Shown piece by piece: positions 764-36,499 of a stretch of DNA of 64,000 bases. The notes under the pieces were generated by a model. The model made no database searches. It worked only from the letters and a program-made list of their open reading frames with translations, and was not told where the DNA came from. The DNA comes from Macrostomum lignano. Taxonomy: Eukaryota. The stretch spans positions 372,001-436,000 of the forward strand of contig NIVC01000025.1 in the NCBI GenBank assembly GCA_002269645.1, given 5' to 3'. Position 1 is the stretch's first letter. The number at the start of each line of letters is the position of its first letter. The position numbers and the translations under genes are program-made.

Positions 764-1671
764 TGAAGTACTTCTCCTTCTCAGGTTCTCTAAGATGTTC
801 CTAGAAAAAAGAACCCGCTGCTCCTGAAGAAGCTAGATAGCACCGCAGTACTACCTATTGATTTGCCTGAAATGAACCTAAAACGTTGCCATTACTTGGT
901 AGGGTTGCTGCCACCTTGGTGTGCGGACTCGACGCATTGGCAGAGTTGTCTATCTGTCACCTGAAAGAAAATTAACAAAGTCGCTCGGAGCAAGACAAAT
1001 CTGAAAAATGTCTCGACAGTCGATCGTCTTAGTAAATGCTGCTCGAACCTGAAAACCTGTAAAACCTGAAATGAGAGAGGAGAGCTCGGAGGCAGTGGCA
1101 GCTCCAATCTAGGAAGCTCCCGAACGCGGCTCATGATCTGGAGAAAAACGGCTCTCAGATACTCCATATTTATAGCCAAGCAGACCCCCAAAAGTCACGT
1201 GAGTTTCATGCGGTGAGCGCGTGAAACTTCCTTATTTGGGCATTGGAATCATGCGGGCGATGTGTGATCCAAGGCCAACTTCCAAATAAGGCAACCCTGT
1301 CATGCAGCAGTGGCGTGACTCAAGGTCAGTGGCCACGCACAGAGTGCGTGCACAGTCAAGTGCTTAGGCTGTGCTAAAAATAGAATCGTGGGCGGATGAG
1401 TCATCCTGTTTACTCCCTCTAGGCAGCCCTTACACTCCGCGCAGGTGATGAGTCATCCTGCTACGCCTCCTCAGCGCGAGTGGGAAGACATTGAGTGTGG
1501 CTGCCCACGCCTGCTCAGGCGATGAGTCATCAGGCAGTAAACACATAGGCCCAGCACAGAGTATCTCTCTCACTAGCTCAGGTGGACTGAGCTACTGTGC
1601 AGCGGATCACAGCGCCCTTAGGGAAAGCTAGTAAATGCTGCTGAATAGCCAGTTAGCAGCCAGTCACTACA
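764..1671 (-). repeat. 3' LTR
   Basis: Direct repeat of 9474-10381, ~23 substitutions by eye (~97.5% identity); termini TGAAGTA...CACTACA on plus. Confidence 0.96.
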
Positions 1672-1683
1672 CTCTCCCCGTCC
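1672..1683 (-). other. Polypurine tract
   Basis: Minus strand GGACGGGGAGAG directly abutting the 3' LTR. Confidence 0.85.
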
Positions 1684-2007
1684 AAATTAAATTGCAGCAG
1701 CGGAACAATGATTCAATTTTATTTGAAAACAAAAATCGGCTCTAATAAGGCCACTGCATAATAAGTATTTATTAGCTACAAAAGAAAAGTAAAATTTATT
1801 GCGCGCCAGTCAAAAAGATGGAAAACAAGGCCACACGAATTGCATACGGTATTGCGGATTAACCAGTGATAGTTTTTAGAGATTAGATTGATTAGCTGAG
1901 AGATGTATTAAATTTCGAGATTATTTTGAAATGGAGATGAATTCCTGATTATTGCATGTCAGCCTAATTGTAAAGATGTAAATGTTGTCATGTAATTTTA
2001 ATTTTTG

Positions 2008-3151
2008 TTAATAACAAATGAATTTTTCAAAGTCCGTTGGCACGTTGGCGGTTTGACCTAGGAAGAAAAGGGCCTTTAAGATGGCCAATTCTAGCGTAGT
2101 TGGATGCAGCGGTTGCGTTGGTAGGGCGGCGATGGTGCGGCGGGCCACTTCCGAGATAGCCTGCCGACGGGCGTTGGCAGTAGCCGCCGAGAAAGCCTCT
2201 CGAATGTTCGTGGGCCATTGGCGACTCAACTGCCCATTCAGGCCAGCCCTCACGAGCAGGCTGGTCAGCTGGCTGATGCCCTCCTCGCTGACTGTGGTTA
2301 GGTGGCTCACCTGTGTTGAGGCGTCAGCGTGCTGCGGCCTGGCCTTGATAGCGGCATTGATCGCTTCCACTAGCTCCGTTTTTGAAAACAACCTGGGCGG
2401 CGACAGGGCAGGCGACGGATGGCGAAAGTGCGGTCTCGGCGGAGTGGGCGGCGTGGGGATATCATCTAAATTGATGGTATCTGGCTGCGGCGGCGGCGTC
2501 ATCACACCTAAATATTGAGCCGGAGGTGGCGAATGCGGTTGCGGCGGAGTGAGCAGGATATCCATCTGCGGATCGAATAGAGCCGGTGGTTGGGCGTCTG
2601 GGGCGTCCTGTTCTCTTGGAGACAGCAGGTCCTGCAGCGGCGGCAGAAGATCGTCGCCCGGCTCCTCTTGAAGGGGAGCTGCTCAAGCTGCCCAGTAAGT
2701 TGAGAAGATCGCCAGCCGGCGATCGATCAGCCTTTGGCGTCTTATGCGGCTGGGCTGGCGAGCTGAGGGCCGGTCGATCGGTGGTCGGACTGGCTGGCGA
2801 CGCGGCTTTCTGGAAGTTCTTAGAGGCCGGTGGACGGTCGCTGGCCGAGACGGCCCTTGGCGGGTCCAGACGGAGCCGTATGGCCGCGGCGCGTTCTCTG
2901 GCTATGGCTAGCCGGTCGCTGAGTTGGGCGGGCTGGATCGGCGCCAACCGTCTTACCTCCGCCGTTGGCCGTTGCTGGGGCTGCGCATCCCATCGACTGC
3001 GGCGCCTGCGCATCGGGTCCTGCGCCGGTGTCGGTATGACACGGGCCGTGCCAGATGGTAGAGCAGGCCGGGTCCGCTTGCGCCCACTGGCCGGCGAGGG
3101 CGTTCTAGATGGTTCGCGGTCACGGCGTTTTCGGTTTTCCTTGCCGGTCAT
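2008..3151 (-). pseudogene. Retrotransposon third ORF (unknown function), split by a frameshift near 2673-2676
   Basis: ORFs 2462-3151 and 2008-2565; the downstream frame is open back to ~2680 (LQEEPGDDLLPPLQDLLSP...); ATG in CAAAATG context 9 nt after the pol stop. Confidence 0.65.
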
Positions 3152-3159
3152 TTTGCTGG

Positions 3160-5961
3160 TTAATTTTGCTTTTCAGCGCTGGAACAGGCACGAGGCCGGC
3201 GGAAAAGGTTAACTAAACGGCTCAAGTAGGACTTTGACTTTGGTTTTAGAACCAAGCGGTCAGGTTCCCTTCGAGCCCTAACTGGCCTGTCATTGACGGC
3301 CCACTCGATTTGACTGGTTGATGGCAAATTGGCCGACAAATCATGACTATTATTTGGCAAATTGGCCGACATAACATGACTATTACATTGATTATTCCTA
3401 TCAGAGTCTAGGTTAATCCTATCGCTAATTTCAATTTCAGGTCGCCTCAACGGTTCGATTGTAGGAGCGGATGGAGCGTCGCAAGAATCATACGGCAGTG
3501 ACTCAAGCTCAACTCTATTCTCCATAACTTCAGGTTCCTGGATGCGGACTTCGGTTGGACGCGCGCCTGGCTGAGCAGCTGATCGGAGTCGCCAGCGGTA
3601 GGCGGGTCTCATGTCCAGGTCGTCTTCTTCTTCGTCAGAGTCTTCAGAGATGGCGGGGAGTGTCGCAGCTCCGGCGTCAGCCTGTCGAACTCGGCGTTGC
3701 TTCTTCGGTTCAGCTGGCCCTTCGAGATCTGCAATTGGATAATCTGAAGTGGGCACAAGGAGGAGGTTCCGGCGATGAACTACCATTTCGTCCGGTCGTT
3801 CTCGAGGGTGACGAACCTTCCGTCGAATCTTGTAGACGACCTCTCCTTTGCTTTCCACCACTTCATACAACGATCTCCTTGGCCTGTGGAACTTTGCTGC
3901 TTCACCTTCGTGTAGGACCGGGTTGTTCAAGAAGACGAGATCTCCTGGCTGTAGCTTCTTAGCTGCTGGTCGGTTCTCGTAGTGCTCGTCTCGTGCTTGC
4001 TGATGCAGGCCTAGCCGTTCATTGGCGAGGTCCGTGGCGTGCTTGAGGCGTTGTTGAAACTCTGTGACGTAATCAGGCAGGTTGGCATACTCCGGGAGTA
4101 GCTTCAATGAATTGTCGAGAGGCATCCTGTATTCTCGGCCATAGACTAAGAAGTAAGGCGTATAGCCTGTGACTGGATGAACGCTGGATCGAAGAGCAAT
4201 CATGCACGCTGGCAGAAATGTGTCCCAATCACGATGATAGTGCTCGAGGAGACATGTCAGAATGCTCTTGATCTGCTTGTTCAAATTTTCTACCAGTCCG
4301 TTGGATGCTGGGTTGTACGGCGTCGTTGTCGTGTGCCTGATCGCGTAGAGATCACAGAACTTCTTGAAGGCGTTTCCTGTAAAGTTCGTGCCTTGGTCCG
4401 TGTGAATCCAAGCTGGAACTCCGTATTCCGGAATAAACCGGTCCTGTAGTAATCGTATAACGGTTTTAGCTTTCTGATTTCTCATCGGATAAGCTATCGG
4501 AAACTTTGATGTCGCACAGCAGAGTGTCAGGATGTACCGATGACCTCCTTTGGACGGTTGCGCAATCGGTCCGATCACATCCATGTGAAGTCTTCCAAAA
4601 ACTTCGCAGACTGGAAAACTCTGCACTGGCACTTGCTGTTTTCGTCGTGACTTGCTCTCTAGGCAGGTTCGGCATTTGCTGACGTAGGTCTCAATGGCTC
4701 GGACTAGACCTGTTCGCCAGAATCTTTTGCGCACACGTTGGGCGGTCTTTCGCTGTCCTTGGTGTCCTGCTAAAGGCGAATTGTGGAGCTCGTTAAAAAC
4801 TTCGTTGTCGAGAGCTACTGGTAAGACAATCTTCGGTGGAGTGTCTTTTTCCGTCATGTTGATCATGAGTAGATCTCGCTCGAGGAATAGTAACTCGTAG
4901 TATCCTAGCAGGTTCCGTTGCTCTCTGCTAAGTCGTAATCGATCGTCAAACGCTGGTTTCGGTTGATTCTCCTTGATCAACTTGTAAACGTAGCCAATAG
5001 CTGGGTCATCCTGTTGAGCTTTGATGAGCTTGTTGCGCGGCAATGGCGGCTTCAGATGATCCGTGAGCAATGCTCGACAGCGCGGCAGACTTTGAGAAGT
5101 TGCGAGCTGGGGAGATGCTTCAGCTGTACGTGCTCTGTCTTCCTCGTATGCAGACTTCGTCACCTCTGCATAGGAACGCGTCGGTTTCGGCGTGGGACGA
5201 AGGCGCTTCATGGCGCAAGACATATCGTCCACGCGTTGATAATGGGTGGTCGGCTGCAGGCTCATGGAAGAGCAACGAGACGGCTCGACCTGCTGAGTCT
5301 GTCGGCTCATGGAAGAGCAGCGAGACTCCTCAGCGGTAAATTTTCGACCGAGATCTGAGCAGTGGCGCTCGACTGGGAGGGCTGCTGGAGCGGTGGCCTC
5401 CGAATCTTCGTCCAAGTCAGTCTCCAAACTCTGTAGGTAGACCTGATGGCTGTCGTTGGAGAGGGCTGAGGGTACAGTGGCCTCTTGAACTTCATCCAGA
5501 TTGGTCTCCTTGAAGTGACGGCGAGCGTGGGTGGCTCGGCAGAGGGCTGCTGGTGCGGTGGCCTCTGTGTCTCCATCCAAGCTTACTGTCTCCTGGCGTT
5601 GGCGCGAACAGTGGAGAACTCGGCAGAGGGCTGCAGGTGCGGTGGCCTCTGGTTCGTTGTCCAAGTCGGTCTCTGCCTCTGGATCGCGATTGTGGGTCTT
5701 GATTGAGAGGGCTGCTGGTGCGGTGGCCTCTGAATCGATGCCCGGATCAGTTTCCTTAATGCGGGGACACTCACGCTGAGTGGTGTCTCCTGTCTCCTCG
5801 CGGTGGCAAGCCAGGACAGCGTCGACGTCTTGGAGTACTCCGTGATCGCATTCTAACGGAGGCGTGTCCGGGCGTCTTGATAGCGCGTCGGCGTTGGTGT
5901 GGTCAGTACCCTTGCGCGATGGGAGATGGTGAACTGAAATTCGCTGATCCTCTGGACCCAT
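3160..5961 (-). CDS. Pol 3' part: end of RNase H, repetitive spacer, integrase
   Basis: DALSR; HHCC (LHNSPLAGH...CRTC); DDE core LHMDVIGP / HTDQG / NGLVENLN. Confidence 0.92.
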   Translation of the reverse strand: MGPEDQRISVHHLPSRKGTDHTNADALSRRPDTPPLECDHGVLQDVDAVLACHREETGDTTQRECPRIKETDPGIDSEATAPAALSIKTHNRDPEAETDLDNEPEATAPAALCRVLHCSRQRQETVSLDGDTEATAPAALCRATHARRHFKETNLDEVQEATVPSALSNDSHQVYLQSLETDLDEDSEATAPAALPVERHCSDLGRKFTAEESRCSSMSRQTQQVEPSRCSSMSLQPTTHYQRVDDMSCAMKRLRPTPKPTRSYAEVTKSAYEEDRARTAEASPQLATSQSLPRCRALLTDHLKPPLPRNKLIKAQQDDPAIGYVYKLIKENQPKPAFDDRLRLSREQRNLLGYYELLFLERDLLMINMTEKDTPPKIVLPVALDNEVFNELHNSPLAGHQGQRKTAQRVRKRFWRTGLVRAIETYVSKCRTCLESKSRRKQQVPVQSFPVCEVFGRLHMDVIGPIAQPSKGGHRYILTLCCATSKFPIAYPMRNQKAKTVIRLLQDRFIPEYGVPAWIHTDQGTNFTGNAFKKFCDLYAIRHTTTTPYNPASNGLVENLNKQIKSILTCLLEHYHRDWDTFLPACMIALRSSVHPVTGYTPYFLVYGREYRMPLDNSLKLLPEYANLPDYVTEFQQRLKHATDLANERLGLHQQARDEHYENRPAAKKLQPGDLVFLNNPVLHEGEAAKFHRPRRSLYEVVESKGEVVYKIRRKVRHPRERPDEMVVHRRNLLLVPTSDYPIADLEGPAEPKKQRRVRQADAGAATLPAISEDSDEEEDDLDMRPAYRWRLRSAAQPGARPTEVRIQEPEVMENRVELESLPYDSCDAPSAPTIEPLRRPEIEISDRINLDSDRNNQCNSHVMSANLPNNSHDLSANLPSTSQIEWAVNDRPVRARREPDRLVLKPKSKSYLSRLVNLFRRPRACSSAEKQN

Positions 5962-6056
5962 CGACCTAGAATCCCGGTAGATTCAGTCTGACGTAACAGC
6001 CAGAGCAAGGCCTTGTGATCACTTCTTACTTCAAACTTCTTTCCTATTAAATATTC

Positions 6057-8135
6057 TCAAAAGTGTCGCATGGCATCGACAATAGCCAGTAGCTCCCGCT
6101 TGGTGACCGTGTAGCGAACTTCCGGGTCACGGAGCTTGCGACTGAAAAAGGCGATCGGTCGTTCTATTCCATCGGATTGCAGTTGTCCTAGACATGCACC
6201 GATTCGGGTGTCGGATGCGTCGGTATCCAGGATGAACTTGACCTTCGGATCCTCATTGAACTCTGGGAGGGCGAGTACTTCGGTTGAGCATAGCTTGCTC
6301 TTCAGAGTCTCAAAGGCAGTCTGATGCTGCTGCGTCCAATGACGCTGGAATCCTTGCAGGTCCTTGCGTGTCAATGCGTGTAACGGGGCAGCAATGCCCA
6401 AGTAATCCTCGACGAACTTCTTGTAGTAATTGGCGAGACCAAGAAAGCTTCGTAGTTGACGAACAGTCCGAGGCGTTGGCCAACTGCGTATCTGCTCAAT
6501 CTTGTCTTCGCTTGTCCGTAGGCCTTCCGGCGTAATCACGTGGCCTAGATAGTGGAGCTCCTTGAATAAATGGCATTTCTTCGGCTTTAGTTTTAAGTTG
6601 GCGGCTATGATTCGGTTTAGGACTTGTCGTAGACGGTCTAAGTGATCATCGAACGTCACTGCGTGTACAACGATGTCGTCCATGTAACCAAGAGCGGCCT
6701 GCGGTTTTAGTCCTTCTAGCAGTTGGTTAATACAACGCTGGAACGATCCGGGGCTGTCGGTGAGTCCCATTGGTAGCACCTTGAAGCAGAATTGTCCACG
6801 ATCGAGCACAGAGAAGGCAGTGATGTCCTGGTCTTCCTCGCGGAGAGGGATCTGGTAAAAGCCCTGTACCAGGTCGAGGCTTGAGTACCACTGCGCTCCT
6901 TTGAGTTTGGCGAAAGTTTCCTGAATGTGCGGGATCGGGTACGTATGCTTCAGCGTCACATCGTTGATCGCTCTGAAGTCGTGCACAATACGAATCGTCT
7001 TGTCCTTCTTTGGCACTAGGATCATCGGCGAATTGTAACTGGAGTACGTTGGCCGTATGATGCCTTTCTTCAGCATATCGTCGAGCATCTGATCCAGTTG
7101 TGGTCGTAGATGCGGAGGTATCCGGCGAGGAGGAATCGCGATTGGCGTCGAGTCTGTGAGCACAATCTCATGAGTTACCAGGTGTGTCAATCCGTGGTCC
7201 AACGGAGTTAGGGAGAATGCCTTCTCGCATTCCTTGAGTACTTCTTGAACCTGGTGCTTCTGGTGGCTGTTCAGCTGGTCTCCGATGTCGACCTCGTTGA
7301 TCCAACTGTCAGTCGTTTCTTCAGTCGTATTCAGTTGACGGACTTCTGGCTCATTCGACTCGCTGAAGTACTCGAGGTCCTGGGTCTTGAGTGGCGTGGC
7401 TACTCCCAATAGCATGTTGCGACGCAAGTGAACCTCTGTGTCTGATGGGTTGAGTACTTCCATCACTCCTCGACCTTCTGACATCGTGTGCAGGACCGGG
7501 GCTGCGTCTAACTGGTGATGCTTCGCTCGCAGTCCTGATTTGAGCGGTTCGATAATCATCGGTGAACCGTAGTTCTGCTGATGACCTTCGGCTAGTTTAA
7601 TGGCGACGAGGCAGGAACATTGAGGCGGTAGAGTGCATTTTTCAGCGACGTACACTCGGCAGGCCTTCAGTTCTCTCCTTGAATAGCGTACCGGAAGTCG
7701 GGTGCCTTGTCGGAATGTGAGCATTCCTTGCTGGAAGTCCAGTCCTTGGCAGTGACTCCGCATGAAATCGATTCCTAAAAGATTTTCACAGTCTCCTTCG
7801 GCGACGAAGAATTCGGTTTCCGCGACATAGTCCCCGAATTCTATTGATAGGATAACCTTAGCGGCGAGACTTAACTCGGTCCCGTCGTACATAGCGACTC
7901 GGTTAGGATAAGCAGGTGCGACTATACAACGTGGTGAACGACGCCTAATGGCGGCCCAAGTGGACGCTCCGAGGAAGTTTCTTCTGCTTCCGCTGTCTAG
8001 CAGAAAGGCGACCTCTCGTCGAGCCACTCGTCCTGTAATAAATGGGTCGACGTCACGCGCATGGCAGTATTTACAAAGGAGGCGTCCACGAAACCTCCAT
8101 CGTCCGTTTCTTCGATTACTGACAACTCGGACGAG
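6057..8135 (-). CDS. Pol 5' part: aspartic protease, reverse transcriptase, RNase H (premature TGA at 6057-6059)
   Basis: FLLDSGS protease; PIAIPPRR, SPMILVPKKD, DFRAIN, LDLVQGFYQI, LPMGL, YMDD RT motifs; LDTDAS and TKRELLAIV RNase H; frame open from ~8135; frame continues after the TGA (EYLIGKKFEVRSDH) until a 2-nt insertion near 5915. Confidence 0.95.
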   Translation of the reverse strand, partial: LVRVVSNRRNGRWRFRGRLLCKYCHARDVDPFITGRVARREVAFLLDSGSRRNFLGASTWAAIRRRSPRCIVAPAYPNRVAMYDGTELSLAAKVILSIEFGDYVAETEFFVAEGDCENLLGIDFMRSHCQGLDFQQGMLTFRQGTRLPVRYSRRELKACRVYVAEKCTLPPQCSCLVAIKLAEGHQQNYGSPMIIEPLKSGLRAKHHQLDAAPVLHTMSEGRGVMEVLNPSDTEVHLRRNMLLGVATPLKTQDLEYFSESNEPEVRQLNTTEETTDSWINEVDIGDQLNSHQKHQVQEVLKECEKAFSLTPLDHGLTHLVTHEIVLTDSTPIAIPPRRIPPHLRPQLDQMLDDMLKKGIIRPTYSSYNSPMILVPKKDKTIRIVHDFRAINDVTLKHTYPIPHIQETFAKLKGAQWYSSLDLVQGFYQIPLREEDQDITAFSVLDRGQFCFKVLPMGLTDSPGSFQRCINQLLEGLKPQAALGYMDDIVVHAVTFDDHLDRLRQVLNRIIAANLKLKPKKCHLFKELHYLGHVITPEGLRTSEDKIEQIRSWPTPRTVRQLRSFLGLANYYKKFVEDYLGIAAPLHALTRKDLQGFQRHWTQQHQTAFETLKSKLCSTEVLALPEFNEDPKVKFILDTDASDTRIGACLGQLQSDGIERPIAFFSRKLRDPEVRYTVTKRELLAIVDAMRHF

Positions 8136-9299
8136 TCAGCTGCCGCGGCTGCGGAGCCATACTCTTCCGGGGCGTGTTCGGTGTCGGCTGCATAGCCTGG
8201 GCTGGAGCTCGGGGGGCGTTGCCGTTTACGTCCTCCGGCCGGCCGTTTCCCGTAAACTGCTGAGATGATTGGCGTCTGTACGGACAATCTCCCGCCTTGT
8301 GTCCTTCTTGCTGACACTCGTAGCACGTGTAGTGCGGCGGTCGGTTCGCTTGACCGATCACTTGATTGGCTGTGACTTGCTGAGCCAACCTGTTCAGCAG
8401 TTGCTGCTGCGGCTGCATCATGGCGGCTTGTTGCTCAACGACCTTTTCCAACTTCGAGAGGGCGCTGTTGTTGTTCTCCTTCGAGGCTTGTCCCTCCCCG
8501 TCCAACATTCTGACCGGGGGCTCCTTCGAACGATGAGCCAGGTCTTTGGCTAATTCCATCCTCTTCAGTGCTCGCAAGGCTTCGCTGAGTGTCGTAGGTC
8601 GGATCCAGAAAAGTTTCTCGCGGCAGTCTGATGACGTGCGAATCCCGCGCAGGAACTGGTCAATCAGTTCTTGCTCTAGATGGCGAGGCTCGAGCCAAGG
8701 GAAGGCTTGCTCTGCTCTCCTAGCTCCTGCAGAGCATCGGCGTAATCTTCCGTTGATTCGTTCTTGCGCTGGCTGCGACCTCTGAATTCCTCTCGATATT
8801 CGTCTGGTCCTGAGAGTCGTGCGAATCTCTCTATTAGTCGTTGCTGAAGCTGTCGATAGCTGATGCGGTCGGGCAGCCTCATGCAAAGCACCGCAGCATA
8901 GGCCGAATTTAAGTCTAAATTCGCCAGCAATTGGGCCTTCTTGTCGTCTTCATCCTGTAGATCTTCTGCCTCACATCGTAGGTCGAAAGCCTTTAACCAA
9001 ACGCGGATGTCCTGCGATGGCGTATAGCTCTTCATCTTAACTTGCTTCTTAGGCTGTAGATTGAGCTGACGTTGCATGGCCTGCAGCATCCTGCGGATCA
9101 TGTCCGGGTTGGTGTCGCATCCGAGGTTGTTGAGTCCTGCAAATATATCTTCTTCCTCTTCTCCTGAGTCATCCCTAAAATTAAATCCTCTACTGCAATG
9201 TACGGGTGAACCCGCAGCAGCTGCGGCGGAGTTTCCGTTGTCCTGACGCGTGTGCTGTTGATCACCGATGAAATCTTCTCGATCACTGTCGTGAGACAT
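8116..9299 (-). CDS. Gag, split by a frameshift near 8720
   Basis: ORF 8676-9299 (capsid-like ...RSQRKNESTEDYADALQEL) continues in ORF 8116-8886 (AEQAFP...LIDQFLRGI...CYECQQEGHKAGDC zinc knuckle). Confidence 0.88.
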
Positions 9300-9448: not shown

Positions 9449-9472
9449 TCGAATCCCACCGCTGTTCCACCA
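9449..9472 (-). promoter_or_regulatory. Primer-binding site, tRNA-Leu-like
   Basis: Plus strand TCGAATCCCACCGCTGTTCCACCA, 1 nt from the 5' LTR, resembles the recalled 3' end of tRNA-Leu (...TCGAATCCCACCGCTGCCA-CCA) with a 2-nt insertion. Confidence 0.8.
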
Positions 9473-9473
9473 G

Positions 9474-10381
9474 TGAAGTACTTCTCCTTCTCGGGTTCTC
9501 TAAGATGTTCCTAGAAAATAGAACCCGCTGCTCCTGAAGAAGCTAGATAGCACCGCAGTACTACCTATCGATTTGCCTGAAATGAACCTAAAACGTTGCC
9601 GTTACTTGGTAGGGTTGCTGCCACCTTGGTGTGCGGACTCGACGCGTCGGCAGAGTTGTCTATCCGTCACCTGAAAGAAAATTAACAAAGTCGCTCGAAG
9701 CAAGGCAAATCTGAAAAATGTCTCGACAGTCGATCGTCTTAGTAAATGCTGCTCGAACCTGAAAACCTGTAAAACCTGAAATGAGAGAGGAGAGCTCGAA
9801 GGCAGTGGCAGCTCCAATCTAGGAAGCTCCCGAACGCGGCTCACGATCTGGAGAAAAACGGCTCTCAGATACTCCGTATTTATAGCCGAGCGGACCCCCA
9901 AAAGTCACGTGAGTTTCATGCGGTGAGCGCGTGAAACTTCCTTATTTGGGCATTGGAATCATGCGGGCGACGCGTGATCCAAGGCCAACTTCCAAATAAG
10001 GCAACCCTGTCATGCAGCAGTGGCGTGACTCAAGGTCAGTGGCCACGCACAGAGTGCGTGCACAGTCAAGTGCTTAGGCTGTGCTAAAAATAGAATCGTG
10101 GGCGGATGAGTCATCCTGTTTACTCCCTCTAGGCAGCCCTTACACTCTGCGCAGGTGATGAGTCATCCTGCTACGCCTCCTCAGCACGAGTGGGAAGACA
10201 TTGAGTGTGGCTGCCCGCGCCCGCTCAGGCGATGAGTCATCGGGCAGTAAACACTTAGGCCCAGCACAGAGTATCTCTCTCACTAGCTCAGGTGGACTGA
10301 GCTACTGTGCAGCGGATCACAGCGCCCTTAGGGAAAGCTAGTGAATGCTGCTGAATAGCCAGTTAGCAGCCAGTCACTACA
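9474..10381 (-). repeat. 5' LTR with TATA box (9879-9884) and four AP-1-type TGAG/CTCA sites in U3
   Basis: Direct repeat of 764-1671; minus-strand TATAAA; TGACTCA at 10026, TGAGTCA at 10107, 10159, 10233. Confidence 0.95.
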
Positions 10382-11276
10382 CTCAAATATATATTTTTAA
10401 TTTTTTGCTAGGCTCCCTATTGAATAAATGTTGAAAACCCACAGATGTGCACTTTAGAAAAGAGTCAAAATTTTTACCATGCTTTAGGATTATTAGACTT
10501 AAAGATATTCCATTTCATCAAAATAAAAATTTGCCAACTTTCTAAAATCAAAATTGAAATTTCCAAAATCAAAATTCAGAAAAACAAAGTTTAGTATGAC
10601 CAATACTCACTTTTTTACTTTCAATTCACTGCTTATGCAAAACAAAATACATGTATACGTAGCAGATATTAGTTTATTTTTAATGACTTTTTAGACACTT
10701 CAAAATTTGAACTTCAAATTTTTTTCAAACTTAAAATTCGGATTTTCAAATTTAAATTTTCAGAACTTCTCTAAGATTTATAAATTACAAGTGTATAGGC
10801 CCCTTCCACAGAGGTTTTAGACCCCTTTCCATGTATATGTATTTGCTAGAGCAGCAGCCAGTAGGAAAGGGCAGCATATGCATAGGCGCTGCATATCTGT
10901 ACAAACACTGCGCTTTAAAAAAATTTCAAAAGTGCACCAAATGCCATCTGTGGTTTTACAATTTTTCCTATAAGGGCTAGGTTAGTAGCTAATAAATGTT
11001 TTCAATTTTTTCTTTCTCTTATAGTAAAAGACAATTTAGCATATTAAAACCACACTCAAATCTATTATATGGTATGCCAGAAAAAATTACCCCCCCCCTT
11101 ATACTATATATTCAAATTTATGACAGAAAAACAAATTTGCTCATGATCTATATGCCGTACATTATCAAAAAAGTGTTATAACAATATAGGACCTTTTTTG
11201 TTGCAATAATAAATGACCTTTTTTGTTGCAACAATATGAGACACTTTCTTGCATTACCACATTTGGTCTTTTATAT

Positions 11277-11538: not shown

Positions 11539-13764
11539 GAGAGTGGGACATTAAAAACCATAGCATAGAGGGCCTAGTCTATTTCATACTTAAAGCTACA
11601 TCAAAAGAAAATTGATGAGATATTGTCATTTATATTAGACCTATGCTAGGCTTAGGCCATTATATACTAGGTATCTAATCTAAATATACTAAATCTCTTC
11701 TAAATATACTAAATCTCTAAGGTTTGTTTGTATGCTTGAATGTCCATAATGCTCTAGAACTCGCATTTCTTGACCAATAATATACTAAATCTGAAAATTT
11801 AATAGACTATGGGGGTCAATGTCTCTAATAGTGACAAATATAATCCACTTTAATAACAGCCACTTTGGTAACTACCTTTTTGGTAATAAAAAAGACAACT
11901 TCTATATACTATTATTCTCACTTGTTACTGAAATAGACTTTTACCAATAGTGACTAGGTCTTCTATACTTCTAAACATGATGGCCATGTCCATAATATAA
12001 AATGTTTTATGTGTAACCATGTCTATCATGTCAATGAAGCCTATATAGTGCTAGCTTTTGGGTTATTAATATTTAATAGGTTTATACTTAGAGATACAAA
12101 TGCCAAATGGTGGCTTAATGGCGGTGTTGCTAATATAGAATCCATTTGCACAGTAGCTATCTCTATTAGAAAAATGTAGAGCCATCATACATAAGTACAT
12201 GAAAAAAATGAGTATATGAGTACTAGTACATGAATTTTTTTGAAAGTAGAGACTCCAGTTAGATTTTGAAGGAAATTATTTTTTAGTATTTTTATCTTAT
12301 TTAATAAATCTCATTTGCCTAAATAAAAAGGGTTTTAAAAATTGGTCAAAAAATTTATAAAACTTTTTGTTATTTTAAATTTGCAACATTTTTAAAATGC
12401 ATTTGCCTATTCGGCACTGTTGCACTATGATCATCTAATATACTAAAAAATGGTTTGTTTGCCTGACTATCTAGGTATGTGATTGTTTTTGCTTTATAAC
12501 TTGAGATTTTTATTAATATTTTGGATATAACTTTTTTACTTAATGAATCTCTTTGCTTAATATCATTTTTAGCTTTTTTATCCCTTATTTATTGCTAAAA
12601 TACTAAATCTAATATAGCCAGAATTGTCAAAACCTTTACAATCAGCTTAAAAGTCATTTCTGGGCCTAAAATGCATGCAAGGACTATTAGCAAAGCATTT
12701 TTTGTCATTTTTTGGTATAACCAATGCCTTGGCTTTAGTTCTTAGTAGACATAATTTAGCATATAAAATTTGTTTCTTGACATGGTGCAATAAAAAACCC
12801 TTTGAAAAAGTAAAAACAATAAAGATTTTTCTAAATCTCAAGGATAAGCCTATCAAAAAAGAATTAGTTAAAAATTGAAAAAAATCCTTGACTATATTGG
12901 CTTTGCATTTCTAATGATTTTTTATGGTAGAGTATAGCATTTTTTTGATTTTACAAATTCAAAATCACATTTTTTGTAAAATAGGTTTCTTCAAAAATGA
13001 ACAACTTTGCAATGCAAATACATAGCACAAACAATATAAAATAAGTAGAAGAGAAAAAATACTTTTCATACTAAAAACTTCATCATCTTTATCATAGAAC
13101 TGGCTTTTTAAAAAACTGTGACACTCATAAATCACATAAACTTAAGATAGAATTAGTTTGCTACACAAATGAATCTTTTAATCTAGGCTAGTTTCTGTAA
13201 AAAAATATGAGCTTATCTATTTTAACCTGTTTCTTATTATGGATTTTCATTTCAATACTTCATATAAATTATTTTTTATAATAATTTTTTATGCATACAC
13301 TTGTACAAAGTATGAAGCATGTCAATGCTGTAACAATCTGTGCATCAATCATTTAATAGAGGAAATATCTTAGCTTGATCTGTGCATAGTTAAAAAGTTA
13401 TTTCTTGCATGAGAGAAAGCTGAGACAAAATATATCGAATGTGGATGGCAGTTAGATTTAGTTAGAGGCAAGTCGGCTAAGCGACATTGTCACACAACTG
13501 GCGACAGTCATTTCTGCCCAGTCCACTGGCATTCATTTGTCATGTGGGGCTTGTGTTCAAACTTCACACACATGAAGGCCGACCCCCAAGGCGCACTGAG
13601 TGTACATGAGTGTGTAAAAGTGCGATACTGCGTACAGTATTGACGTACTTGTATGTGCCCAGGTGCTTATAATGCTTCTGCAATTAATATTGATGTTAAT
13701 ATCAGACAGAAGGCACTAGTGTAAACTATCTGGGTTTATTTCAGCTATAGAAGACTCAGTAACT

Positions 13765-14493
13765 ATGCTGCATAGCAACGATATTAAGCTAGACATGGGC
13801 GGCGGTCTAGCCGAAGATTTCATGTACAGCAACAATGTGGCCTCGGCCCAGATCTACATCCGCATGGGATTCTTGCGCAAAGTGTACGGCATCCTGTCTG
13901 CTCAGCTGCTGGTCACCAGCCTGGTCTGTGCCGCATTCTTGACTAACGCCGAAGCGGTGAAAGCCTCGCTTCATGGTGGCATGTTCGGCCTATTGGTGTT
14001 CTGCTTCCTTGCCACTATGGGCCTCGTGTTTGCCCTGCACTGGAAGGCCAGGGAGACCCCTATTAACTTTGTGCTGCTGTTCGCCTTCACCCTGTGCGAA
14101 TCTGTCACCGTAGGATTCTGCGTTGTGCATTATTCAGTTGGCCTGGTGCTGCAGGCTCTGCTGCTTACTCTGCTTGTGACCGTTGGCCTGACACTCTTCA
14201 CTCTGCAGACTAAACGCGATTTTAGCGCTTGGGAAGCTCCGCTACTGGTGGCTCTGCTGCTGCTATTAGGAGGCTGCGTTATTCAAATGTTTGTACAGAG
14301 CAGCGCCCTTCATCTGGCCATTTCTCTTGGCGGAGCCTTCTTATTCTCGCTGTTTATTGTGTTTGACACGGCCAATATTATGCACAAGGTCAGCCCCGAG
14401 GAGTACATCTTGGCTAGCGTTGATCTCTACCTGGATATCATCAACTTGTTTCTCTACATTCTGCGCATTCTCAACGCTTTGAAGAAAGATTAA
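13765..14493 (+). CDS. TMBIM4: Transmembrane BAX inhibitor motif protein 4 (lifeguard 4 / GAAP), single coding exon, 242 aa
   Basis: DFMYSNNVASA..IRMGFLRKVYGILSAQL N-terminal signature, multiple hydrophobic segments, di-aspartyl motifs IVFDT and LYLDIINLF. Confidence 0.92.
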   Translation: MLHSNDIKLDMGGGLAEDFMYSNNVASAQIYIRMGFLRKVYGILSAQLLVTSLVCAAFLTNAEAVKASLHGGMFGLLVFCFLATMGLVFALHWKARETPINFVLLFAFTLCESVTVGFCVVHYSVGLVLQALLLTLLVTVGLTLFTLQTKRDFSAWEAPLLVALLLLLGGCVIQMFVQSSALHLAISLGGAFLFSLFIVFDTANIMHKVSPEEYILASVDLYLDIINLFLYILRILNALKKD

Positions 14494-22721: not shown

Positions 22722-22915
22722 TCTCAGGTAGTGTCTAGAGTCTATCTGCCATCACCTGAAGCACGGGTCTCAGGTAGGGTGTTTAGGGTCTATCTTTCAT
22801 CACCTGAAACACAGGTCTCAGGTAGGGTGTTTAGGGTCTATCTTTTATCACCTGAAGCACGGGTCTCAGGTAGGGTGTTTAGGGTCTATCTTTCATTACC
22901 CGAAGCACGAGTGTC
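22722..22915 (+). repeat. 48-bp tandem repeat (~4 copies) at the 3' end of the cenH3 intron
   Basis: CAGGTAGGGTGTTTAGGGTCTATCTTTCATCACCTGAA(A/G)CAC(A/G)GGTCT; a related unit lies at ~16885-16930. Confidence 0.9.
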
Positions 22916-22932
22916 TGCTGTTCAATCCTCAG

Positions 22933-23337
22933 AACTCAAAGCAACACCAGAAGCAGCATAAAAAGCAACAACACCAGCAGCGAAAACAGAAACAAAAATC
23001 TTCAAAGCCTGAGCCTCGAACTCATCGGCGGCGTAAAAATCACATCGACAGAGAAATTAGGTTTATGCAGACTACCACTAAACTGTTAATTCGCAAGCTG
23101 CCATTTATGCGCCTAGTCAAGGAGGTGACCGCGCATTTGAAGCACAATGGTCAGCTGCCCGCCGCGCCAGGTGTTGGCGAAACCTGGCAAGCTGCCGCCG
23201 TGCTGTGCCTGCAGACCGCCGCTGAAGCCTACGTTATTCAACTGCTGTCGGATGCTTATAAAATCTGCAGCCATTGCCGCAGGGTGACGCTAAAACGGGA
23301 GGATCTGGCGCTGGTCTGCGAACTGTGCCGCGTCTGA
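22933..23337 (+). CDS. CENPA: cenH3/CENP-A-like histone, exon 2 (Q/K-rich linker + histone fold)
   Basis: REIRFMQTTTKLLIRKLPFMRLVKEV...WQAAAVLCLQTAAEAYVIQLLSDAY...RVTL; cenH3 diagnostics versus H3: Q68>M, F84>W, T107>A, lengthened loop 1; acceptor CCTCAG|AAC in frame. Confidence 0.85.
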   Translation, partial: NSKQHQKQHKKQQHQQRKQKQKSSKPEPRTHRRRKNHIDREIRFMQTTTKLLIRKLPFMRLVKEVTAHLKHNGQLPAAPGVGETWQAAAVLCLQTAAEAYVIQLLSDAYKICSHCRRVTLKREDLALVCELCRV

Positions 23338-25520: not shown

Positions 25521-25608
25521 TTTTTAATAATGGCTATTTTCGGTCCTAGTTATAACAGTACAAAAGTCTGCCAACTTAATACTCAATAGACATTTACACT
25601 CATTCCAG

Positions 25609-26073
25609 GAGGGCCCTCGCGTACTCAGCGTGAGCTTCAACCAGGACTTCACCTCTTTAGCGGTGGGCCTGAGCTGCGGCTACCGACTCTACAGCCTGTC
25701 GCAGAATGCCGATCGCCTCGAAGAAGTGTTCCGTCACGACGGAGACGAAGTCTGCATAATCGAGCGACACTATTCGAGCTCATTAGTTGCCATGGTAACC
25801 CAGGCGGCGCCTAGGAAACTAAGAGTCTGCCATTTCAAAAAGGGCACAGAGATTTGCAGTTGCAGCTACTCTAACAGCATCCTGGCTGTTAGATTGAACC
25901 GGCAGCGGCTTGTCGTGTGCCTGGAGGACTCGCTGTACATTCACAACCTGCAGGATATGAAGGTGCTGCACACTATTCGGGAGACTCCGCCTAATAGGCT
26001 CGGCTTGTGCGCCTTGGGCTCAGCGAATGACAGCTCGCTTTTGGCTTATCCTGGTAGCGCTCAACTCGGCGAA
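25609..26073 (+). CDS. WIPI2: WIPI1/2 (Atg18 PROPPIN), first identifiable coding exon
   Basis: [12 protein letters not shown]...[47 protein letters not shown]; CCAG| acceptor, GAA|GTAATT donor. Confidence 0.92.
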
Positions 26074-26104
26074 GTAATTAACTGTTCTCCGCTTGTAATG
26101 ATTT

Positions 26105-27925
26105 ACGATTCACCGAGATTCACTAATCCCGGTTTGGAATCACTAATTCTCATCTAGATTCACTAATCCTTATCTGGATTCACTAATCCTCATCTGGATT
26201 CCCTAATCATCAACTACCTGGATTCACTAATCCTCATCTGAGATTCACTAATCCTCATCAGGATTCACTAATCCTTATCAGGATTCATTAATCCTCATCT
26301 GGATTCACTAATCCTCATCTGGATTCACTAATCCTTATCTGGATTCACTAATCCTCATCTGGATTCCCTAATCATCAACTACCTGGATTCACTAATCCTC
26401 ATCTGAGATTCACTATTCCTCATCTGAGATTCACCATTCCTCATCTGAGATTCACTATTCCTCATCTGAGATTCACTAATTCTTATTTGGACTCATAAAT
26501 CCTCACCTGGATTCACTAATTCTTATCTGGACTCATTAATCATCATCTTTATTTACTAATCCTCATCTGGATTCACTAATCCTTATCTGAGATTCACTAA
26601 TCCTCATTTGGATTCACTAATCCTCATCTGGATTCACTAATCCTCATCTGAGATTCACTAATCCTCATCTGAGATTCACTAATCCTCATCAGGATTCACT
26701 AATCCTTATCAGGATTCATTAATCCTCATCTGGATTCACTAATCCTCATCAGGATCCACTAATCCTCATCTGAGATTCACTAATCCGTATCAGGATTCAT
26801 TAATCCTCATCTGAGATTCACTAATCCTCATCTGAGATTCACTAATCCTCATCAGGATTCACTAATCCTTATCAGGATTCATTAATCCTCATCTGGATTC
26901 ACTAATCCTCATCTGGATTCACTAATCCTTATCTGGATTCACTAATCCTCATCTGGATTCCCTAATCATCAACTACCTGGATTCACTAATCCTCATCTGA
27001 GATTCACTATTCCTCATCTGAGATTCACTATTCCTCATCTGAGATTCACTATTCCTCATCTGAGATTCACTAATTCTTATTTGGACTCATAAATCCTCAC
27101 CTGGATTCACTAATTCTTATCTGGACTCATTAATCATCATCTTTATTCACTAATCCTCATCTGAATTCACTAATCCTCATCTGGATTCACTAATCCTTAT
27201 CTGAGATTCAATAATCCTCATTTGGATTCACTAATCCTCATCTGGATTCACTAATCCTCATCTGAGATTCACTAATCCTCATCTGAGATTCACTAATCCT
27301 CATCAGGATTCACTAATCCTTATCAGGATTCATTAATCCTCATCTGGATTCACTAATCCTCATCAGGATCCACTAATCCTCATCTGAGATTCACTAATCC
27401 TTATCAGGATTCATTAATCCTCATCTGAGATTCACTAATCCTCATCTGAGATTCACTAATCCTCATCAGGATTCACTAATCCTTATCAGGATTCATTAAT
27501 CCTCATCTGGATTCACTAATCCTCATCTGGATTCACTAATCCTTATCTGAGATTCACTAATCCTTATCTGAGATTCACTAATCCTCATCAGGATCCACTA
27601 ATCCTCATCTGAGATTCACTAATCCTCATCAGGATTCACTCATCCTTATCAGGATTCATTAATCCTCATCTGGATTCTGGATTCGCTAATCCTCATATGG
27701 ATTCACTAATCCTCATCTGGATTCTGGATTCGCTAATACTCATATGGATGCACTAATCCTCATCAAAATTCACTAATCCTTATCTGGATTCATTAATCCT
27801 CATCTGGATTAATCCTCACCAGGATTCACTAATCCTCACCTGAGACACTAATCCTCATCTGGATTCACTAATTCTCACATAGATTCACTAATTCTCACCT
27901 GGATTCACTAATCATCGCCTGGATT
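26105..27925 (+). repeat. 20-21-bp minisatellite filling a WIPI intron (~85-90 copies)
   Basis: (G/GA)GATTCACTAATCCTCATCT units. Confidence 0.96.
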
Positions 27926-27948
27926 AAACTATATGATCCCGATTCCAG

Positions 27949-28280
27949 GTGCACATATTCGACACCGTGGCTCTGAAGCCGCTCTGCGTAGTGGCCGCTC
28001 ACGACAGTCCACTGGCTGCCATCAGCTTCAACGCTCAGGCCAACAAGCTGGCCACAGCCTCGGAGAAGGGCACCGTTATTCGCATATTCTCTGTGCCCGA
28101 GGGCCAGCGTCTGTTGGAGTTTAGACGCGGCGTTAAACGTTGCGTCACCGTCTATTCTTTAGCGTTCAGCCGGGACAGCCGGCTGCTGGCCTGCAGCTCC
28201 AATACGGAGACGCTGCACGTGTTCTGCCTGCAGCCAACCACCGGGCAGGTTGCGGCTGCTGCGCCTGGACACGCTGGGAG
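27949..28280 (+). CDS. WIPI2: WIPI1/2 exon with the FRRG phosphoinositide-binding motif
   Basis: [17 protein letters not shown]...[32 protein letters not shown]...[10 protein letters not shown]; 3' boundary 28280 (alternative 28248) uncertain. Confidence 0.92.
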
Positions 28281-28284
28281 GTTG

Positions 28285-29135
28285 GTTGCTAGGGTATTGT
28301 CCAAGGTTGCTAGGGTGTTGTCCATGGTTGCTAGGGTGTTGTCCATGGTTGCTAGGGTGTTGTCCATGGTTGCTAGAGTGTTGTCCATGGTTGCTAGGGT
28401 GTTGTCCATGGTTGCTAGAGTGTTGTCCATGGTTGCTAGGGTGTTGTCCATGGTTGCTAGGGTGTTGTCCATGGTTGCTAGGGTGTTGTCCATGGTTGCT
28501 AGGGTGTTGTCCATGGTTGCTAGGGTGTTGTCCATGGTTGCTAGAGTGTTGTCCATGGTTGCTAGGGTGTTGTCCATGGTTGCTAGGGTGTTGTCCATGG
28601 TTGCTAGGGTGTTGTCCATGGTTGCAAACTGATTTTCGACGGTTTCTAATGATTTTAGATGGTTGCTAGGGTGTTGTCCATGGTTTCTAGGGTGTTGTCC
28701 ATGGTTGCTAGAGCATTTTCATGGTTGCAAACTGATTTTCGATGGTTTCTAATGATTTTAGATGGTTGCTAGGGCATTGTCATTTGTTGCTAGGGTGTTG
28801 TCCATGGTAGCTAGGGGATTTTTAATGGTTGCAAAAGGATTCTCGGTGGTTTCTAAAGATTTTAGATGGTTGCTAGGGCATTGTCAGTGGTTTCTATGGC
28901 ATTTTAAATGGTTGTTATAACATGTTCGGTGGTTTCTCAGGGATTTTCGATGGTTGCCAACCTTCATCATCGTCAATCAATAGTTGCTAAAGGTTATTTG
29001 ATGGTTTCTAGAGATACTTTTTTATGGTTGTTAGGGCATTGTCAATGGTTGCTAAAGAATTTTCGATGGTTGCTACGGCATTAGATGGTTGCTTAGGCAT
29101 TGGTTCGTTAGGCATTGTCAATGGTTGCTAGCCGA
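28285..29135 (+). repeat. 21-bp intronic minisatellite (~16 clean copies, then decaying)
   Basis: GTTGCTAGGGTGTTGTCCATG. Confidence 0.95.
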
Positions 29136-29187
29136 TAGATCAGAAGCGGCACTAACATAGCAAAGTGCATCTGCTCAATCATCTCAG

Positions 29188-29803
29188 CGGCGGCAGTAGC
29201 GGCTCGGCAGCAGTAGCGGCGGCCCCGGCCGAGGACTCGTGGATGGACTGGGCCTACAAAGCGTCGGCTTCGTATTTGCCGGCGGCGCTCAGCCAGGACC
29301 GCGACTTCGCCACCGCTCGACTGCCAGACGGCGGCGGTCGGACCCTCTGCTGTCTGGTCACCATCGGCAAGCACCTGCGCCTCCTCTGCGCCGGCCCAGA
29401 CGCCCATCTGAGCGTCTTCAACGTCAACGAGCACGTCGGCGGCGACTGCGGCCCCGTCGCCCGACTCGACCTGCGCGGCGAGCCGCCGATTCCTGGCAGC
29501 GCCGCTCCGGCCCCGGCAGCTGCCGCCGTCTCCGGCGCCGCTGTGCCGTCTCCCGCGACGCTGCCCTCGGCGCCTTCGCCAGTGCAGCAGCAGCAGCAGC
29601 TGACATCTCCGCCGACGCCGCCGCCGTCTCTGCCGCTGCCTCAGTCGTCGGCATCAGCATCGTCTCCGACGCCTTCGAACGGCGGCCGTCAGCATCGCCG
29701 ATCCAACGAAGCCGCAGTCGCGGAGACGACCGCCGCGGCTGGCCGGCTGAACCTGCAGGACAGTCAGGAGTTCCCGCCTCCGTGCGGCGCCTCGACCAAT
29801 TGA
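29188..29803 (+). CDS. WIPI2: WIPI1/2 last coding exon with a low-complexity C-terminal tail
   Basis: SWMDWAYKASASYLP..LSQDRDFATARLP blade-7 motif; phase-2 acceptor ~30 nt after a CTAAC branch point; stop at 29801-29803. Confidence 0.85.
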
Positions 29804-32318: not shown

Positions 32319-32540
32319 CTGCAGGCAGTGTCGATAGTTATTTATGACGTCACAGCCACAGTTATATGTACATGCTGATCCCAATCATTGGGAATCGAAA
32401 TCATCTAAGCAGAAATATCTCTAAGATATCGAGTTTCAGAAGCAAAAATATTGTCTACAAAAGCAAGTCTTGCCTTCAAAAGCAAACGTCTTGTCTACAA
32501 ATGCAAACTTGTCTTCAAAAGCAAGCAATCGAATCCTTGC

Positions 32541-33104
32541 CTGAAAGTAGTCTCCGCACATGGTTCTGCCGTTCAGAAACATGTCTACAAATTCTGGCCA
32601 ATCGCCAGGCCAAGGCCCGTACATCTCCAGGCCTTTGTAGAAATGGTACAACGAATTGCAGCAATCCTTCGGATTTCGAAGTACCGCAATAATCCGAGGA
32701 TTAGCGGAGTCCAGCGCGTTGCCAATCAATGAGTAGGGGCAGTGGGTCTTGATGAGGCGCTGCCGGTCCTGCGGCGCAGCCTCCAGCTCATCGATGCCCC
32801 ACCGGACTGGGCCGGAGGTGCCCCAGCCGTAGTTAAACTCCAGGAACGGGAATCGTTCGTCGATGGCGGCGAACTTGGCGCCCGGCTGGATGACGTCGCG
32901 GTGCACCAGCTGCCATACGATCTCCTGGGTGAGGGTGGTGCCGCAGCGGGGGAAAGTGCACACGCAGATGTCGCTGGGGCGGTAGCGGAACTCGCACACG
33001 GCTCTACGAAGCACCTCCAGCGTTGTGTAGTTGTTCCACAGGATGCCGCGCCACTCGAACTCGTCCAGTGTTGGAGTGTGCGATGAGCGTTTTGATGCAG
33101 ACAT
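32541..33104 (-). CDS. Cytosolic sulfotransferase (Sulfotransfer_1), exon 1; spliced product ~301 aa
   Basis: 5'-PSB TFPRCGTT, catalytic KTH, 3'-PB RNPKD..SLYHF; joins exon 2 via a GC donor (CAG|GCAAGG). Confidence 0.92.
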
Positions 33105-33182
33105 GCCCGGGTTTGTTCGGTTTGTCAGTCTGTCTCAGCTTCTCAGCTTGTTCACAGCTAGACTGGATTGCAGTTGAGAGGC

Positions 33183-34194: not shown

Positions 34195-35026
34195 TCAGCG
34201 CAAACGACACCAGCGCCGCACCCGACGCCAGCTCAGTCTACGAAGTCGGCGCCCAATCCAAAAAGCGACAGCCGCTGACGCAGCGGTCAGACAGACCGAC
34301 AAAAAAGTCACGTGATAGGCGACGGCGGAGGCCTCCGCGGACTGCACTTTGACTGCAACATCCTGCATTTGTTGCTGCTGCTTCCGCTGCTCTTCTGTCA
34401 CAGCGGCCCGTGCCAGGAACAGTCGCTCAGCCAAGCGAGCTCGACATTCGTCAGACAGCAGCTTCTTCTTCTGCGGGCTGCTGCTGCTGCTCAGCCGAGC
34501 CAGACAGGCCATCAGACGGCCGCCGCCAGGCGACACGTCACCACAATGGGTGCGCAAGTCAGCAGCGCAAGCCCGAACCAGCGCAGTGTCCGAGTGTACG
34601 TCGCCGCTGTCGTCGACATGTCGCTGACCGGCGGCAATACCAGCGGCGGCTTCTCGACAAGCGGCGGCGTTGGCGGGAATTCGACCTTCGGACAGGGCGC
34701 GGCGCAGGCAGTCGGCGGCTGCCTGAGCGGCCAACTGCGGACTGTCGAAGCCGGACAGGCTGGCGGCGCAGCCCTCGGCCAGCAGGACCGGCCGGCAGTC
34801 GGCCAGCACGCGGTTTGGCTCCCAGCCGGCCGCAGGCAGCAGCTTGTCGATGCTGTGCTCGGCCAGGTGGCGCTGAACAACCCGACGGCAGGCTGGACGA
34901 AGTTGGGCGGCGGCGGAATCGGCGGAGCGGAGGCAGCGCAGGAGGCTCAGCTGGACGCCGGCAGCGTCAGCCGCGGCGGCGTCGACCGGCAGACGGGAGG
35001 CTTCACGGAGGACATCGCGGCAGCGG
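34195..35026 (-). CDS. GLG1: GLG1 exon 10 (last Cys-rich repeats, TM helix, basic cytoplasmic tail)
   Basis: LLRCLR...ACRRVVQRHL...GRLMACLARL...CRARL; TM VTFLSVCLTAASAAVAFWIG followed by RRLRR; phase-2 acceptor. Confidence 0.85.
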
Positions 35027-35070
35027 CTTGGAAGAGGGGAGATTGGCGATGGATTTCGGTTAGCTCACTG

Positions 35071-35072
35071 AG

Positions 35073-35169
<97 letters not shown>
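35071..35169 (+). repeat. (CTGT)n microsatellite, GLG1 intron 9
   Basis: ~25 perfect copies. Confidence 0.98.
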
Positions 35170-35170
<1 letters not shown>

Positions 35171-35179
35171 CCAGCCCAC

Positions 35180-35574: not shown

Positions 35575-35597
35575 CTGTGCGGGATTGAAGGCGGAAC

Positions 35598-35895: not shown

Positions 35896-35901
35896 ACACA
35901 C

Positions 35902-36128: not shown

Positions 36129-36157
36129 CTGCGGTGATAAGAAATTGGAATTGTAAT

Positions 36158-36447: not shown

Positions 36448-36482
<35 letters not shown>

Positions 36483-36499
36483 CAGTTAGTTAGTTAGTC

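Follow-up and report, generated by a model that had tools for sequence, protein, structure and literature searches.

Which protein does a Ty3/gypsy element encode when a third open reading frame stands behind pol, in the position of an env gene, and what might the element use it for? This question is raised by a 9.6-kb element on the minus strand of a stretch of Macrostomum lignano DNA of 64,000 nucleotides (contig NIVC01000025.1, positions 372,001 to 436,000), which we call the window and whose coordinates are used throughout. A reading made from the sequence alone had proposed that this third frame (ORF3), which follows pol, encodes a nuclear accessory protein and no envelope. In this study we compared it with other copies of the element in the same genome, with sister families and with public databases.

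The element and its surroundings

The element carries the LTRs, primer-binding site, polypurine tract, target duplication and gag of the Ty3/gypsy group, with pol in the order protease, reverse transcriptase, RNase H and integrase (Table 1). The window copy is decayed, with one break each in gag, pol and ORF3.

Table 1. Features of the element in the window, in the element's own 5' to 3' order
Feature	Position	Strand	Remark
Target duplication, 4 bp	760-763 and 10382-10385		CTCA
5' LTR	9474..10381	(-)	TATA-like box at ~9884
Primer-binding site, tRNA-Leu	9453..9472	(-)	imperfect in window copy, perfect in other copies
gag, one zinc knuckle	8116..9299	(-)	frameshifted in window copy
pol: PR, RT, RNase H, integrase	3160..8135	(-)	single break near 5980-6060 in window copy
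TTCCAG acceptor-like motif	3179..3184	(-)	27 nt before ATG; fits the host's top SL trans-splice acceptor [T/C]TNCAG
ORF3 N-terminal piece, from ATG	2684..3151	(-)	
Two basic clusters (KENRKRR, GRKRTR), predicted NLS	3068..3142	(-)	conservation 0.90
RRRRSRWD, ULM-like (U2AF ligand motif)	2987..3010	(-)	
VRRL motif	2945..2956	(-)	also in 6/7 rows of the 75-79% sister family
ORF3 frameshift	2675..2683, approximate	(-)	window copy only
ORF3 C-terminal piece: Pro/SP/TP-rich linker and helical domain	2008..2682	(-)	
TINLDD, SIM-like	2461..2478	(-)	N in 29/29, L in 31/31 copies
Helical C-terminal domain, six predicted helices (low confidence)	2011..2382	(-)	model pLDDT 54
DASTQV, LC8/DYNLL-like TQ anchor	2308..2325	(-)	Q in 33/33, T in 31/33 copies covering the site
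AT-rich 3' UTR	1724..2007	(-)	allele-specific past ~1780; moves with the C-terminal half of ORF3
AATAAA, predicted poly(A) signal of the ORF3 message	1718..1723	(-)	52 nt before 3' LTR
Polypurine tract	1672..1683	(-)	
3' LTR	764..1671	(-)	97.5% identical to 5' LTR; sense strand without AATAAA or ATTAAA

Several further features of the element are recorded here in their own right. Between the RNase H and integrase parts of pol (5254-5755) there are five repeats of 81-84 nt (EATAPAAL) and two shorter ones. The tRNA-Leu primer-binding site is tandemly repeated with spacers of ~72 nt, two or three sites per copy, in the leaders of L062, L063, L065 and L085 (equivalent to window 9453-9473) and in L107 and L119. 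Downstream of the TATA-like box the LTRs hold several TTTCAG acceptor-like motifs (9590-9780 and 880-1070), and trans-splicing at these would cost the genomic RNA its 5' end.

Outside the element lies an intron-poor host gene (13720-14493) whose product we take to be a Bax-inhibitor-1/TMBIM-like membrane protein. Other stretches are presumably a divergent histone H3-like frame (22732-23337), a WIPI/Atg18-like host gene (25531-29803) that is broken up by tandem repeats, a sulfotransferase-like exon (32436-33134) and a GLG1-like cysteine-rich repeat gene (34195-42693). Large tandem arrays with units of 14 bp and of 4/8/12 bp, together with two 23-24-bp arrays inverted with respect to each other, were noted at 47900-53400, 36000-38000 and 39450-41060.

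ORF3 is a real gene under purifying selection

The sequence-only reading had described an ATG in CAAAATG context just past the pol stop and two frames that would be the pieces of a single broken ORF, and on both counts it was right. The start at 3151 is separated by 8 nt from the pol stop (3160-3162), the first frame carries the basic N-terminus (KENRKRRDR, GRKRTR), the second (2008-2682) is Pro-rich with a helical C-terminal part, and the frameshift between them lies near 2675-2683. A search of the host's own genome gave at least 46 DNA and at least 40 protein matches, and 35 loci were fetched. In four of these 35 (L061-L064) ORF3 is whole from ATG to stop, with 370-378 aa, and in a fifth it is whole apart from a 0.9-kb insertion. 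The break is real and present in the DNA, since contigs of two public runs (X1, 2576-3011; X15, 2553-2845) cross it without a gap and with the same letters, which rules out an assembly error as its source; it is private to the window copy, since 25 of 36 copies read through that place in one frame. Among the other copies we also saw two unrelated 0.9-kb insertions within ORF3, one in L065 (~2600-3490, with a short flanking duplication) and one in L092-L094, and groups of 5'-truncated copies in which nothing but ORF3 or its C-terminal third remains (L068-L070, L066-L067 and L072-L073).

The expectation that the frame would be intact elsewhere, with dN/dS below 1, was borne out. In a set of 15 chosen copies, 96 of 105 pairs had at least 100 codons and a computable dS; all 96 gave values below 1, with a median of 0.15, a rough figure because dS is close to saturation. 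An unfiltered comparison of whole copies agrees with it (pN 0.12-0.23, pS 0.43-0.67). Differences between alleles are two to three times more frequent at the third codon position (0.38-0.57) than at the first two (0.12-0.26), and the five other reading frames of the locus contain 5-18 stops each.

The protein is no envelope and matches no known family or fold

That ORF3 does not encode an errantivirus-type Env is confirmed: the protein is without a signal peptide, a Cys-rich glycosylated ectodomain or an Env domain. Its first 38 aa are hydrophilic and basic (best 8-residue hydropathy at most 0.29), it has one or two cysteines and at most one N-glycosylation sequon (0-1), and it matched no Env or fusion family in Pfam. 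Two of the arguments that had been used need rewording. Strings of the form R-x-K/R-R do occur, inside the basic motifs; the lack of a clear transmembrane anchor is a fair description but not an absolute one, with a best 19-residue hydropathy of 1.7-1.8 in whole copies and 1.2 in the window copy.

The helical domain is preceded by about 250 disordered residues that are rich in Pro and SP/TP; the protein has 13-15 SP/TP pairs. ORF3 matches no known family or fold. No homologue of the whole protein was found among 7996 candidates of 206-658 aa. One match, P0110 (190 aa, 44% identical to the window piece), was obtained among 1.84 billion representatives, and one, P0111, in a joint C-terminal profile search that is weak as evidence of absence. 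An Atlas search gave no usable match, Pfam nothing over its cut-off and a sequence search of the PDB nothing better than E 0.016. The structure models reached a pLDDT of 47 and 54, too weak to inform on the fold, and their best structural comparison gave Z 5.4 with an rmsd of 6.7 over 95 residues; a comparison with viral structures, which likewise says nothing on the fold, gave nothing under E 0.001. Of the proposed nuclear accessory protein, what stands is a real, selected, non-Env protein that has NLS-like motifs and whose helical C-terminal domain fits no known family.

Many old alleles on a homogenised backbone

What the earlier reading missed is that ORF3 varies between copies in a way that the rest of the element does not. 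Across eight nearly complete copies identity is ~90-100%, mostly 95-99%, in gag-pol and the greater part of the LTR, and it falls to 50-75% in the stretch from ~3190 to 1780. Compared pair by pair, the elements show a dS of 0.05-0.16 in integrase and reverse transcriptase and of 0.45-3.0 in ORF3, except in pairs with the same allele. At a threshold of <88% identity 36 copies fall into 18 ORF3 types, and tree length is 0.22 for integrase as against 1.9 and 1.6 for the two halves of ORF3. These halves disagree with each other: L061 has the 3' half of L064 (99-100%) and a 5' half that is 90% identical to that of L090. Same-allele pairs differ by 1.9-2.5% in ORF3, 2.0-2.6% in integrase and 2.2-3.3% in reverse transcriptase; the diversity is therefore old and does not come from fresh mutation, and hypermutation of the block was rejected. 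Together with its 3' UTR, ORF3 makes up a block with sharp boundaries and many old alleles that have been shuffled by recombination, and this block, synonymous sites and UTR included, is coextensive with the predicted ORF3 message. The pattern is that of a long-kept polymorphism, and selection may well have been its keeper.

From 131 integrase matches listed we fetched 18 sister loci; two further stretches proved to be a continuation and a weak ORF3 match. In families at 73-79% integrase identity the equivalent region is read in frame with integrase, and the C-terminal domain of this fused tail is homologous to that of ORF3 (hhalign E 2.8e-6, probability 88%, 118 columns). P0111 is such a tail, given in the public annotation of the host as a stand-alone 416-aa protein that begins at a Met just past the acceptor; its sequence equals the ORF read from sister locus L119. 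A family at 59% has a separate ORF in ORF3's place for which homology is not supported (hhalign E 0.54 and 0.84), so that it shares only position, signals and variability. The allelic pattern is repeated in three sister families, where pol is 95-99% identical and the ORF3 equivalent 52-74% between types, and pN was far below pS in four of five domain pairs tested. A synonymous divergence 20- to 30-fold deeper in the ORF3 block than in pol, in four families, is unusual, and family-consensus annotation would hide it. As a separate observation, sister elements at L119, L107 and L121 stand head to tail with a common LTR.

Predicted signals for a separate ORF3 message

ORF3 is likely made from a spliced or SL-trans-spliced message of its own, as judged from the acceptor motif and the AATAAA just before the polypurine tract that bracket the block. 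The spacer between pol stop and ATG is 2-16 nt long and occurs in all three frames, which excludes expression by read-through or frameshifting. In 20 of 21 copies TTCCAG is found 21-35 nt upstream of the ATG (the remaining one has TTCTAG), and [T/C]TNCAG, which ranks first among the motifs at SL trans-splice acceptors of Macrostomum lignano according to the available part of the source (PMC8629364), lies 7-18 nt ahead of the corresponding ATG in each of the four sister families, whether the sequence there is coding or not. All five families thus carry YTNCAG 7-35 nt before the ATG, against a background of 10% (970 ATGs of these elements), although the families are related and as evidence for an acceptor not fully independent. 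A conserved cis donor after the TATA box was not found (GTRAG in 6 of 20 matches), which makes us lean towards trans-splicing. None of the joints examined (15 of 16, in contigs of four public runs of uncertain type) was at the acceptor.

At the other end, all 18 copies with a readable PPT-LTR junction have AATAAA 51-52 nt ahead of the 3' LTR. Three of the four sister families have it 49-62 nt before the LTR, amid unrelated neighbouring sequence, which makes four of five families overall; in the 73% family it was not seen at the matching place. Neither AATAAA nor ATTAAA occurs in the six LTRs of the window element's family and the one sister LTR checked, and in the two elements checked ~7 kb of the sense strand further upstream contain no AATAAA. 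With a poly(A) signal in front of the polypurine tract, the choice of 3' end would decide between messenger and genome.

Short motifs in the protein

The motifs in Table 1 were picked by eye once the alignments had been seen. The two basic clusters we take to match an NLS pattern. Conservation of the RRSRWD island is 0.93 as against 0.62 and 0.51 in its flanks, with W in 26 of the 28 copies covering the site; the strict pattern [RK]-x(0,3)-W-[DN]-[EQ] fits L061 and L064, while the window copy and L062 depart from it. The ULM definition is that of PMC5113200, which in the part available also describes these motifs as degenerate, with matches at near-random rates. The EVRRLA island is likewise conserved at 0.93. 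In the sister families the counterparts of the SIM-like motif are VIDLT, FIDLT or CIDLT, and VIDLT is given as a SIM in the text available from PMC4907222. An xTQT-like anchor is present in 6 of 7 rows of the 75-79% family; the LC8 TQT motif is defined in PMC6607443, which in the part at hand also states that TQT matches are often due to chance. The ULM-like motif was found in 0 of 13 sister-family rows scanned, and those families have Arg- or RS/SP-rich stretches. The host encodes a U2AF2 UHM, and a modelled complex of this domain with ORF3 residues 36-70 scored 0.21 against a mark of 0.34, in a run without folded controls.

What ORF3 might do

The many-allele block, the ULM-like motif, the bracket of acceptor and poly(A) signal and the integrase-fused homologues, all of which had been missed, suit a regulator of the element's own RNA processing no less well than the roles suggested before (an anti-silencing or targeting factor). 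We favour, with a probability of roughly 0.4, the reading that ORF3 is a nuclear regulator comparable to Rev or CERV, which would let full-length RNA skip the bracketing acceptor and the early poly(A) signal. Both signals must be passed by genomic RNA. Cer1 faces a problem of this kind and solves it with CERV, which is why a feedback switch is favoured. Processing at the acceptor and at AATAAA would probably be the default, and would yield a short ORF3 mRNA whose end lies ahead of the polypurine tract; such an RNA could not be copied and would serve as a message only. The protein itself would very probably be nuclear and mostly disordered, with LC8-assisted dimerisation beside the helical domain. 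U2AF2 couples the last acceptor to polyadenylation. More tentatively, the ULM-like motif, or the RS/SP-rich stretches in the sister families, may engage U2AF2-type UHM factors of the 3' splice site and tip processing towards genomic RNA, so that full-length RNA passes. It seems reasonably likely that the alleles would be kept by negative frequency-dependent selection, with rare versions escaping host defence or freeloading copies.

The limitation of the ULM-like motif to one family counts against a ULM mechanism. We found no structured element in the 3' UTR, where folding was no better than in shuffles (z 0.40, 0.70, -0.33), and no cognate RNA element in the places scanned, the 3' UTR and the post-TATA patch. 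This patch, a short variable stretch just past the TATA-like box (1090-1150 and 9800-9860), has at least three types. Tat/TAR-like pairing with it was rejected, as the patch is unlinked to the ORF3 alleles (Mantel rho 0.17, p 0.12; U5 identities, which include some flank, were left out). The fullest version of the favoured reading joins all parts: a balanced many-allele regulator locus inside a transposon, similar to an S-locus or the MHC, with an operon-style SL-trans-spliced and early-polyadenylated ORF3 message, a protein that mimics a splicing-factor ligand to switch to genomic RNA, and rare alleles that escape host defence. We regard this whole as unlikely.

A chromatin role fits the core that is shared between families, namely the SIM-, LC8- and VRRL-like motifs and the helical domain, equally well. 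In flies SUMO and LC8 serve piRNA-guided silencing. Possibly, then, nuclear ORF3 might use its SIM and LC8 motifs to block or mimic SUMO-dependent, small-RNA-guided chromatin silencing, and the block that equals the predicted mRNA, with its synonymous sites and UTR, would diversify to escape small RNAs. The VANC proteins, as far as the available text of PMC5735166 goes, are a precedent of fast-diverging anti-silencing genes. Yet the ULM island would be left unexplained, linkage by itself would diversify synonymous sites too, and the post-TATA patch, the part of the LTR that was tested, showed no DNA target matched to the alleles (p 0.12); we hold anti-silencing to be somewhat unlikely.

The domain that stands in frame with integrase in the larger sister family makes a role in the integration complex possible. 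Chromodomains and the Ty5 targeting domain occupy this very position, and ORF3 could have originated as an integrase C-terminal extension that acts in the pre-integration complex as tether or nuclear-import module, fused in the 73-79% families and supplied in trans here; the homologous C-terminal domain and the NLS- and SIM-like motifs would suit such a function. It is made improbable by the fused families themselves, which retain the acceptor with an in-frame Met directly past it and of which one tail is annotated as a separate protein, and by the window element's family, which has a stop between the two genes and keeps no frame.

The allelic pattern could also be due to history and not to selection, whatever the role of ORF3. 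Retroelements recombine by template switching. One gag-pol-LTR backbone might have swept through old subfamilies and left their ORF3 blocks behind, as divergent blocks resist homogenisation and the integrase and ORF3 trees disagree. We consider this quite improbable, as two crossovers flanking exactly the block would be needed in each of four families, and as no divergent pol accompanies these ORF3 alleles among the 131 integrase matches listed, barring L086-L088 (~88%). A poison-antidote, exclusion or self-recognition locus, in which alleles favour their own type or exclude others, would fit the many old and sharply bounded alleles of four families but is very unlikely, since N- and C-terminal halves recombine freely (L061 with L064 and L090) where matched pairs would resist, and no second gene or cognate element was found.

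Comparison with known systems

Non-env third ORFs are already known; apparently new are the protein family and the many-allele block on a homogenised backbone. In the literature searched, with subscription papers and bioRxiv supplements outside its scope, there was no description of an ORF3 gene of this kind, of a many-allele ORF3 block or of a poly(A) signal before the polypurine tract. In PMC12801592 the strings 'ORF' and 'splic' are absent from the main text, and two short motifs were not found in five supplements, in which long alignment lines were cut.

The Env of errantiviruses lies after pol with an upstream acceptor. ORF3 resembles it in these two respects and differs from it in having no signal peptide, few cysteines and sequons and no Env domain. 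The ORF3s of bdelloid rotifer LTR retrotransposons are likewise non-env third ORFs in the env position for which a spliced message is assumed, but they carry recognisable captured domains (GDSL, DEDDy), of which the window element's ORF3 has none; a many-allele block on a homogeneous backbone was not found described for them in the part of the source available (PMC5408684). VANC of the Arabidopsis VANDAL elements is also a fast-diverging accessory gene of a mobile element, according to the available text of PMC5735166. However, VANDALs are DNA transposons. Their VANC types vary from family to family and evolve together with tandem-repeat targets, whereas the ORF3 alleles segregate inside a single family, and the LTR patch, where a matched target was sought, gave none.

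HIV-1 Rev, in the portion of PMC6511859 available, has a ULM within its arginine-rich motif and is a precedent for a ULM in such a regulator. ORF3 is similar in its Arg-rich stretch, which ends in Trp and fits the ULM pattern, and in its predicted nuclear location; its role for unspliced RNA would belong to our model. The two share no homology, the likeness stops short of a response element and an export signal, and ORF3, with ~375 aa in one exon after pol, is unlike Rev in layout.

A further likeness is to Cer1, the Ty3/gypsy element of C. elegans whose genomic RNA must skip strong splice and trans-splice sites (PMC3315495; PMC10309623, as far as available). As described in the latter, CERV is a nuclear accessory protein that this gypsy element makes from a spliced message, and its host uses SL trans-splicing; it bears sites for Pro-directed phosphorylation, to which the SP/TP pairs of ORF3 would correspond. 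However, CERV has three folded domains and a Cys loop, whereas most of ORF3 is disordered, with a single helical domain, and the protein contains 1-2 Cys; the two are set apart by description, and no Pfam or database match links them. The function of CERV is demonstrated, while that of ORF3 is predicted. Accessory genes of retrotransposons are rarely understood, and CERV is, in the text available, the only tested Rev-like case among those compared here. The 18 alleles of ORF3 on one backbone, in a tractable animal, are a natural panel for the pressure that a host puts on the accessory gene of a transposon.
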